A DNA stretch of 63,994 nt, counting the filler, from Rhizaria sp. SCN 62-66 (Eukaryota): the NCBI GenBank assembly GCA_001724265.1. It is 3 parts of 3 records of this genome, joined end to end, with 100 filler letters (N's around TTAATTAATTAA, not from the genome) between each part and the next. Parts side by side here need not be neighbours in the genome. Positions count along the whole stretch, not along the records: positions 1 to 24,453 come from MEDY01000418.1; 2 more parts are not named here. One strand, 5' to 3'. The stretch's first letter is position 1; each line of letters starts with the position of its first letter. This document shows positions 6,719-8,508 of the stretch, in pieces. The notes under the pieces were generated by a model that searched no databases, had not been told where the DNA came from, and worked only from the letters and a program-made list of their open reading frames with translations. The translations under genes and the position numbers were made by a program.

Positions 6719-8508
6719 TTATGCACTGGGCTCCCACTCGTCATGGAACTTGCCAGGCATGTCTGTGCGCTCGAAGGTGTGAGCACCGAAGTAGTCACGT
6801 TGCGCCTGTGTAAGGTTGGCAGGAAGACGAGCACGGCGATACGTGTCAAAGTAGCTGAGCGACGCCAGCAGCGCAGGCGCAGAGATGCCAGCGTCAATGC
6901 TTAACTTGCAGATGTGGCGCAGGTGTGGCGCAGCGCCTGCGACAACGGTTGCGACCTCCGGCGCCAGCAGTAGGTTCTCAAGCCCCGGCTACTTGGCGTA
7001 TACGCGTTGCATAGTGGCAAGGAAGGCTGCACGGATAATGCAGCCGCCTGTCCAGATGCGCGCAATCTCGGCCAGCGGCAACTCCCAGCCGCGTAACGAG
7101 CTTTTGGTCCGCAGCAGCGCCATGCCCTGCGCGTAGCTCGCGATCTTACTCGCATACAGCGCCTGCTTCACCGCCTCCACCACTCCATACTTCTCTTCAT
7201 CATTTAACGTGACAGACTTACCAGTGCTGCCATGAGCAATAATGCTGCCGTAGAGCTTAGCGGCGGTCTGCCGCTCAGCGTGCATGGCGGCGAGCTGCCT
7301 GGCGGTGAGCGCAGCGGCGATGGTGGGCACTGGGACGCCCTCCAGAGCCGCGTCGCGCACCGTCCACGTGCCCGTGCCCTTCATCCCGGTCTTGTCCAGC
7401 ACTACGTCTAGAAGGTCGCCGCTCGAGCCTTGCTTGTCGGCGACGCGTAGAACGCGCGCAGTGATCTCGACAAGGTACGACTGCAGCTCCTCCCCGTCTT
7501 GGTTCCATGACTCGAACACGGCCGCGATCTCGCGGTTCGTCATCCCACACACCGTACGAAGCACGTCGTAAGCCTCAGCAATGAGCTGCATGTCGCCGTA
7601 CTCAATGCCGTTGTGTACCATCTTGACGTAGTTGCCTGCGCCGCCGGGGCCCAGGTACGTGACGCACGGAGCGCCCCCGACCTGGGCCGCGATCTTGCTC
7701 AAGATCGGCTCGACGCGGTCGAACGCAGCGCGCGGGCCACCGGGCATGAGCGACGGGCCGTGGCGCGCGCCCGTCTCGCCACCGGAGACGCCCAGACCTA
7801 GGTAATGCACGCCGTGCGGGGCGAGCTTAGCGGCGCGTGCCTCAGTCTGCTCCCACCACTCGTTGCCGCCGTCGATGAGCGTGTCGTCAGCAGATAACAG
7901 CGGAAGCAGTGTCGCGATAGTGCCGTCCACAGCCTGCAAAAGAGGTTGGAATATAAGTAATTTCAACAAACACACGTATTAGTTTGTTTAGTTCATCGCG
8001 AAACATCATGTTACAATTGTTAGAGGGTTTCACCCCATGCAGCGGTGCGACTTAAAGTAGGTTTATTTCAAGTCTGTAGAGATGATAACGTACGATACCA
8101 GCGTCAACCATGATGAGAATAACACGAGGAGTAGATAATGAAGCGACGAACGCCTTGGGATCATGGATCGCAATGACATTGCTCTTGAGCTCGGCCTACA
8201 ATCAAGATAAGAGAGAAGTCAACGAAGGAGCAGTGAGTCACAACAAAGACAGGTGATAGCGCATCAAGGAGTCGTGGGATGGGACTGTAACAAAAGTTAA
8301 ACGAACAATTTGGCGTATATAACTTAGTATTGTTAAAGATTTGTCGATTTCGCACCTTTTGAGCCTCCTCGACGGCCTGATCAAGGCGGGGTTGAGAGCG
8401 GTTGGAGATGGCTACACGGAATCCTTTGGAGGCGATGTTTAGGGCGAGGTTGCGACCCATAACGCCCATGCCAAAAACGCCGATATCAGCCTTAGTAGCA
8501 CAGCTCAT
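6719..8508 (-). CDS. gnd: 6-phosphogluconate dehydrogenase (decarboxylating), ~489 aa; exons 8508-8356, 8195-8094, 7933-6719; in-frame TAG at 6991-6989
   Basis: GMGVMGRNLALN, DGGNEW, VKMVHNGIEYGDMQ, WTGGCIIR and, beyond the TAG, the conserved [20 protein letters not shown]. Ends in TAA at 6719. Confidence 0.97.

Follow-up and report, generated by a model that had tools for sequence, protein, structure and literature searches.

The gnd locus is crossed by an in-frame TAG

The stretch of DNA studied here, which we call the window, comprises 63,994 nucleotides of the assembly deposited as Rhizaria sp. SCN 62-66 (GCA_001724265.1). Its minus strand carries gnd, the gene for 6-phosphogluconate dehydrogenase (6PGD), whose reading frame is crossed by a TAG codon. 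The window is nuclear DNA of an intron-bearing eukaryote, recovered from bioreactor, wastewater and related metagenomes. At least 11 genes lie on its 64 kb; exons are GC-rich (about 60-75% GC), and introns and spacers are AT-rich. In a search of sequencing runs, 16 run rows from 11 studies contained some or all of the gnd stretch. This one 64-kb window, together with database fragments, is the evidence base for all that follows.

gnd has three exons and 489 codons, and the TAG is codon 400 (Table 1). The N-terminal NADP-binding Rossmann domain is present with its glycine motif, the part encoded by exons 1 and 2 having been established by reading and by comparison with the consensus of alignment A1. 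On the exon 3 frame, the Pfam profile PF03446 was matched at positions 68-159 of 161, and PF00393 was covered in full (1-290 of 290, E 9.5e-113) only when the TAG was read through. Among solved structures, 2iyo_A was the top match to the exon 3 product, with an alignment that takes in residues 2-402 (E 1.1e-116). Around the TAG the protein reads ...VYAK-x-PGLENLLLAPEVATVVAGAAPHLR, where x is the TAG residue. The first-pass annotation of this DNA, made by a model from the letters alone, had described a TAG at 6989 followed by 89 intact codons, and the count is exact: 89 sense codons (6988-6722) and then a TAA.

Two minor features of gnd can be added here. Both introns are of the same length (160 nt), and their sequences are unrelated. 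At the protein level, the closest named eukaryotic sequences are plastid-type enzymes of plants (54-59% identity); for the homologue P0008, which is 60% identical, the top prokaryote matches (46-63%) are in genomes of Planctomycetota, Myxococcota and Bacteroidota.

Table 1. Coordinates of the two TAG-bearing genes and of a further, ambiguous TAG
Feature	Position	Strand	Remarks
gnd exon 1, coding part	8356..8508	-	ATG 8508-8506, 51 codons; end agrees with cDNA joint 8194->8355
IGVFGMGVMGRNLALN, NADP-binding glycine motif	in gnd exon 1	-	agrees with consensus of alignment A1
gnd intron 1	8196..8355	-	160 nt, GT..AG; skipped by X5 cDNA contig (shorter joint side only 29 bases)
gnd exon 2	8094..8195	-	34 codons
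gnd intron 2	7934..8093	-	160 nt, GT..AG; X5 cDNA contig joint 7932->8093, shorter side 103 bases
gnd exon 3	6722..7933	-	404 codons including TAG; end of NAD_binding_2 and whole 6PGD domain
gnd in-frame TAG, codon 400 of 489	6989..6991	-	context AAG TAG CCG, next base C
gnd tail after the TAG, 89 sense codons with QRDYFGAH	6722..6988	-	first Met 77 codons after TAG
gnd terminator TAA	6719..6721	-	AT-rich sequence follows
Intron-less gene: CCCH-type zinc finger, DEAH-like helicase, C-terminal zinc finger	24989..30247	-	1752 codons from ATG 30247; TGA 24989-24991
Helicase gene in-frame TAG, residue 118 of P0002	29969..29971	-	CCC TAG CCC; between zinc-finger region and helicase
Helicase gene in-frame TAG, residue 1673 of P0002	25304..25306	-	CCT TAG CAC; inside Cys/His zinc-finger domain
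Possible fourth in-frame TAG	1630..1632	+	29 codons after predicted ATG (1423), low-complexity gene; ambiguous, as translation could begin at a later ATG

The TAG is genuine and is retained in the spliced mRNA

A 3125-base contig from another collection was 100% identical to the gnd stretch, TAG included, and a DNA contig from another study (run X4, depth 6.3) carried single-nucleotide polymorphisms (SNPs) elsewhere with the TAG unchanged. Gene-caller products ending in ...VYAK (P0006, P0126 and P0127) came from 8 contigs. Since the TAG is shared by the identical contig, by the X4 contig with its SNPs and by the cDNA contig described below, it is not an assembly error.

Evidence at the RNA level came from run X5. 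One of its contigs (1308 nt, depth 16.7) matched positions 6728-7932 with 0 differences and then continued at 8093-8195, skipping exactly intron 2; it spans the TAG and the next 261 bases without a difference. A second X5 contig skips intron 1. The run is catalogued as 'RNA? (probably DNA)'; the two exact GT..AG joints, with no cover of the introns listed, show that these contigs come from spliced RNA. Hence gnd is transcribed and spliced, no intron lies over the TAG and the bulk transcript is not edited there, at the resolution of contigs, in which minority variants would be lost. The first-pass annotation had raised the possibilities that an intron hides the TAG or that an intact paralogue exists and this copy is silent; the spliced contig retains the TAG, and the copy is expressed.

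Two other runs, X7 and X15, cover gnd in fragments only. An apparent joint in X7 (7147->7574) was rejected, having AC..GC ends and a side of 35 bases, and probably comes from the conserved gnd of another organism. An X7 DNA contig with a depth of about 4 stops exactly at 6988, beside the TAG; this may be chance and was not used.

The region after the TAG is conserved as 6PGD

Used as sole query, the 89-residue tail matched 18 distinct 6PGD sequences in the PDB (best E 3.4e-22), and its identity to seven homologues was 53-63%, compared with 56-70% upstream of the TAG. The Arg and His of the QRDYFGAH motif, which the first-pass annotation had placed in the tail, were both found there (in P0001 they are R380 and H386, a spacing of six residues). 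According to a review of 6PGD structures, the conserved tail residues Arg446 and His452 (sheep numbering) are contributed to the substrate site by the other subunit and take part in forming it (PMC8900737); we carried this numbering over by the 1pgn alignment's offset, which is good to within a single residue. A 6PGD product stopping at the TAG would thus be without the tail Arg and His of the partner subunit's substrate site. Neither could the tail be made by re-initiation, as no in-frame Met occurs for 76 codons after the TAG, until 13 codons before the stop of gnd, so that decoding of the TAG is required. The degree of conservation, the significance of the tail on its own and the lack of a re-initiation Met all uphold the earlier claim that the region past the TAG is translated.

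We then looked at the column of the TAG itself in 79 homologous loci. Every locus has exactly one residue there (N 37, D 37, E 3, S 1, K 1) and none has a gap, which argues that the codon is read, and is neither skipped nor shifted over. The description of this site as polar and often Asn was accurate, N and D making up 74 of the 79 residues. Its supposed compatibility with Gln fared worse: Q is absent from all 79 loci, leaving Gln as one candidate of several. If the identical contig (L001) is set aside, the closest metagenome locus is 56% identical.

Two further TAGs interrupt an unrelated helicase gene

In-frame TAGs also occur in a second gene of the window, which is intron-less and encodes a helicase between zinc-finger regions. 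Its 1777-codon frame (24989-30322, minus strand) is open save for two TAGs, and the 1752-codon open reading frame (ORF) has no frameshift or other stop. Pfam Helicase_C scored above the cut-off; in the C-terminal zinc-finger region IBR was matched weakly, below the cut-off.

Fragments of the orthologue from a relative align with 54-66% identity over residues 9-1046, 1060-1594 and 1625-1769 of P0002. One of these, P0249, is continuous over residues 9-1046 (57% identity over 1069 aligned positions) and has His at TAG 118. Another, P0395, runs without gaps over residues 1625-1769 (66% identity over 145 residues) and has Ser at TAG 1673. The latter site is flanked on both sides by invariant Cys/His columns in 8 aligned sequences, five of which have a residue opposite the TAG (S, Q, Q, N and K). 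The two distant homologues bearing Q share a local motif (LPQHYFCG and IQQHLFCG). At the two sites with an unambiguous alignment, one residue and no gap stands opposite the TAG, in all 79 loci for gnd and in the closest relative for TAG 1673; the codon thus appears to be read at both, which argues against hopping or frameshifting.

In databases, the product of this gene is stored as a 1506-residue protein, the middle piece between the two TAGs, and this length is shared by the whole three-member cluster. Two members that we read whole differ at two residues; each opens with the first Met past TAG 118 and closes on the last residue ahead of TAG 1673.

The relative's orthologue is itself stored in pieces of 1119, 559 and 151 residues, which adjoin conserved sequence. 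The breaks follow ...VTVRARSA and ...LLRDGT, and the gaps between the pieces amount to 13 and about 30 residues. The three fragment clusters each list a longest contig of equal length (89,568 bases). Judged from these sequences, the fragmentation may be the pattern expected of in-frame stops at other positions, and we treat it as a lead only. In one assembly of the relative, the N-terminal and C-terminal fragments (P0393 and P0369) are shorter than their counterparts (967 vs 1119 and 83 vs 151 residues) and otherwise identical; this could reflect extra strain-specific stops or another choice of start by the gene caller, and the pair was not used.

TAG is missing from gene ends and rare inside genes

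In the homology-supported coding sequence of the two unrelated genes, the in-frame stops amount to three TAG, 0 TAA and 0 TGA. No internal stop was present in the exons examined of eIF6, NFS1, the C-terminus of a HECT gene and a CS-domain gene. Some apparent candidates were rejected: a TAG in the HECT frame (36671-36673) is the AG acceptor of an intron and no codon, and in P0003 and P0004 the likely starts come after the TAGs, which are at residues 29 and 9, respectively.

We could recognise 11 gene ends, of which eight are TAA, three are TGA and none is TAG. If TAG normally ended 20-25% of genes, an assumed share, the chance of finding none among 11 would be about 0.04-0.09, which is weak alone. 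In 14,825 codons of confident frames there are three firm TAGs and one ambiguous TAG, against 430 CAG and 88 CAA; this puts UAG use at about 0.2-0.3 per 1000 codons. TAA is favoured as terminator (8/11) despite a high GC content at third codon positions (GC3). The base following the terminator is a purine at 10 of the 11 ends, and after the three internal TAGs it is C.

The surroundings of the internal TAGs were otherwise plain. Predicted folds downstream of the three (60 and 100 nt) were unremarkable against shuffled sequences (z -0.9 to +1.7), and the downstream hexamers CCGGGG, CCCAAT and CACCAC have, by eye, only the C at +4 in common.

Three other signals were tried on the window and set aside. 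A GC3 screen for stops with coding-like flanks returned TAG 7/752, TAA 2/883 and TGA 3/1767, and most of the TAG matches were judged to be antisense to long genes. ORF lengths under alternative codes were uninformative in such GC-rich DNA, where TGA as sense lengthens ORFs most. TAGs inside CAG/CAA runs (5 cases) can equally be read in AGC/AGT (Ser) or GCA frames. One TAG (5397-5399, minus strand) lies within ...QQQQQ*QQS... of a short possible gene adjoining gnd, whose other frames give Ser/Asn or Ala/Thr repeats.

Probable use of UAG as a sense codon

The in-frame stops are solely TAG, they lie in unrelated conserved genes of which one is expressed, they are stable across sequence variants, and TAG ends no gene. 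Together, these facts favour reading UAG as sense; by the same set of features, UAG-only reassignments were recognised in Iotanema, the rhizarian exLh and phyllopharyngean ciliates. Our preferred interpretation is that UAG has undergone reassignment to sense organism-wide, with UAA and UGA as sole terminators, and we put its probability at about 0.7. UAG would then be decoded as an amino acid throughout the nuclear genes of the organism, and probably also in its closest database relative. By precedent, a normal tRNA would have given rise to the decoder, a tRNA with anticodon CUA, and an eRF1 weaker on UAG may or may not accompany it. The 6PGD mRNA would be translated straight past codon 400 into a normal 489-residue enzyme, and the tail, as far as can be told from its sequence, would complete the 6-phosphogluconate site of the partner subunit. 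The sparseness of UAG suggests a reassignment that is recent or still costly.

Several observations weigh against this interpretation. The sample is small, a single 64-kb window with firm TAGs in two genes, 9 of the 11 genes having none, and 3-4 TAGs in 14,825 codons is far below published cases of UAG as sense. ARAGORN found 0 tRNA genes in the 64-kb window, an Rfam search of the window gave no match, and the window has no eRF1 gene. The C that follows all three firm TAGs also fits context-dependent read-through, UAG followed by C being the leakiest termination context in eukaryotes. In the X15 library, made from polyA RNA, a contig covering 7900-8082 retains most of intron 2 unspliced, either as pre-mRNA, perhaps, or as DNA carried over into the library. 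The codons at which the relative's helicase breaks could not be read, and an intron is possible there. Finally, no single amino acid suits all sites: the gnd column is N/D, and Q is found in 2 of 5 sequences at site 1673.

As a tentative proposal, which we find possible but rather doubtful, the window could show an early or ambiguous stage of stop capture in a GC-rich, non-ciliate lineage. A new UAG tRNA, possibly for Ser and not Gln, would serve essential genes such as gnd; UAG would be gone as a terminator and yet remain at ~0.2-0.3 per 1000 codons, and a sister species would have breaks elsewhere in the same gene.

Alternative explanations

The main rival to reassignment gives UAG a dual meaning. 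It would still be a terminator, yet near-cognate or weak suppressor tRNAs would read it through efficiently in UAG-C contexts and selection would put up with a few internal UAGs, making the organism an ambiguous intermediate. Such an arrangement agrees with the C that all three firm TAGs precede, with the very low usage (3-4 in 14,825 codons) and with the lack of a suppressor tRNA in the ARAGORN search of the 64-kb window; dual-meaning stops have been described in ciliates, as passages of PMC11687900 relate. The three Cs are nonetheless weak evidence given GC-rich coding DNA, and TAG is found at 0 of 11 gene ends. With a stop at codon 400, each terminated chain of this central-metabolism enzyme would be wasted, and the TAGs are kept across sequence variants. 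We therefore regard dual meaning as unlikely.

Read-through programmed by a local signal in 6PGD would account for a TAG that is kept in the mRNA and followed by C, and the first-pass annotation had pointed in this direction in proposing that 6PGD needs its TAG read through. The need itself stands, as the tail is coding and the TAG is in the mRNA. What probably does not stand is its restriction to gnd, given two more in-frame TAGs in an unrelated gene, 0/11 gene ends with TAG and no outstanding downstream structure or shared motif. Known programmed read-through extends an already complete protein. The present case resembles such C-terminal extension in that a tRNA would decode a stop that has C after it, and differs in that the stop of gnd lies inside the catalytic fold, that several genes are involved and that no stimulatory element was detected. 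A mechanism private to 6PGD thus has very little in its favour.

We consider it just as improbable that the TAGs are nonsense alleles, with gnd and the helicase gene inactivated, or heterozygous for a null, and another copy or allele supplying the function. Nonsense mutation from CAG to TAG is frequent where DNA is GC-rich, a second gnd copy is possible in a genome that lies for the most part outside the data, and an uninterrupted metagenome 6PGD (P0007), which may or may not come from this organism, is 64-68% identical. Decayed genes would, however, hardly show what we see: the gnd mRNA is made and spliced, the X4 (depth 6.3) and X5 (depth 16.7) contigs run unbroken across the TAG and show no other letter there, and the tail is conserved like the rest of 6PGD. 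In the helicase gene, two TAGs stand in a 1752-codon ORF with no frameshift or other stop, and the TAG-bounded product has the same length in 3 of 3 cluster members. TAG terminators are absent as well.

Correction at the RNA level is the least credible explanation. It would act on some of the transcripts, by A-to-I editing (UAG to UIG, which is read as Trp; in filamentous ascomycetes such editing is stage-specific), by U-to-C editing or by a rare alternative splice. Although contigs drop rare variants and could conceal a minority of edited transcripts, the cDNA contig keeps the TAG with 0 differences over 6728-7932 and no joint nearby, Trp is ill-suited to an N/D position and a Ser/Gln position, and removal of the codon would create a gap that is absent from homologues.

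Which amino acid UAG encodes

If UAG is a sense codon in this organism, the residues opposite the TAGs in the closest homologues are A in gnd, H at site 118 and S at site 1673, and A/S/T-like residues recur opposite the stops. From the aligned sequences the inserted residue is probably polar or small, with Gln, Ser and Glu as candidates; Leu, Tyr and Trp, being hydrophobic or aromatic, suit the sites poorly and are unlikely meanings. Gln is favoured because it has the most precedents and because a single transition leads from CAG to TAG.

Relation to known codes

The kind of code change that we propose is already known, though rare, and this case would be an additional member. Nuclear codes in which UAG and UAA differ in meaning are known from a handful of lineages, in the accounts given in parts of PMC11687900 and PMC5304391. 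Closest in kind are Iotanema spirale, with UAG for Gln, and the rhizarian exLh, with UAG for Leu; as described in the relevant passages, both use only UAG in frame and only UAA and UGA as terminators, UAA being the commoner (PMC5304391, Panek et al. 2017). There, in-frame UAGs numbered 204 across 126 genes and 384 across 71, and the amino acid was established from many conserved columns (PMC5304391). Our organism agrees with both in having only UAG in frame, UAA and UGA as terminators with UAA commoner, and UAA still a stop. It differs in the amount of material, with three firm sites in 2 of 11 genes here, and in leaving several amino acids as candidates.

GC-rich exons, 160-nt introns and many genes per contig are unlike ciliate macronuclear DNA. 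Accordingly, the window, with its GC-rich exons (about 60-75%), 160-nt introns and at least 11 genes in 64 kb, differs from phyllopharyngean ciliates, with which it would share UAG as sense and shares UAA as the preferred terminator (8/11 here). In those ciliates UAG stands for Leu or for Gln, 78-91% of genes carry it and a tRNA-Sup(CUA) is present in two genomes, according to parts of McGowan et al. 2024 (PMC11687900). The same source, in a passage citing other work, lists the green alga Scotinosphaera, in which UAG is Ser and UAA is kept as stop (PMC11687900). Scotinosphaera resembles our case as a UAG-only change outside ciliates, and the relative's helicase has Ser at one TAG site; in contrast to it, there is no evidence for green-algal placement here, and Ser is one of several candidates.

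Each new code that splits UAG from UAA tests the mechanistic coupling of both codons. If our reading is true, a GC-rich, low-UAG and seemingly widespread wastewater eukaryote could show a code shortly after reassignment, and would bear on the codon-capture and ambiguous-intermediate models discussed in parts of PMC11687900. There is a practical side too: gene-caller products are stored cut down, at 313 of 489 residues for 6PGD and 1506 of 1752 for the helicase, and standard-code annotation of the organism's genome bins will be systematically wrong.

Source organism and other features of the window

The closest matches of eIF6 (72-80% identity) stand under the names of unrelated protist transcriptomes, and a protein atlas returned generic eIF6 clusters only. 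Scans of prokaryote genome contigs revealed no misbinned contigs of the source organism or of that of P0008, and a search of the literature, supplements not covered, turned up no report of this organism.

Four runs of 44 N interrupt the window (24454-24497, 24510-24553, 49024-49067 and 49080-49123), arranged in two pairs with 12 bases between the members of each. The second pair breaks an exon that is apparently, by a family label which we assume, that of an eS10-like ribosomal protein (...LKKHPQIDAPNLYVKM).

Two very long genes occupy much of the minus strand. The first, at 49306-62952, is a single unbroken ORF of 4548 codons, GC-rich and ending in TAA, which would encode a giant protein; no Pfam family was matched in it at E<=0.001. 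The second, at 10726-17229, is a gene of ~2170 codons with extreme His/Gly/Arg repeats (HGHGHRH..., RRHGRRHG...), Asp/Glu/Ala tracts and predicted hydrophobic segments.

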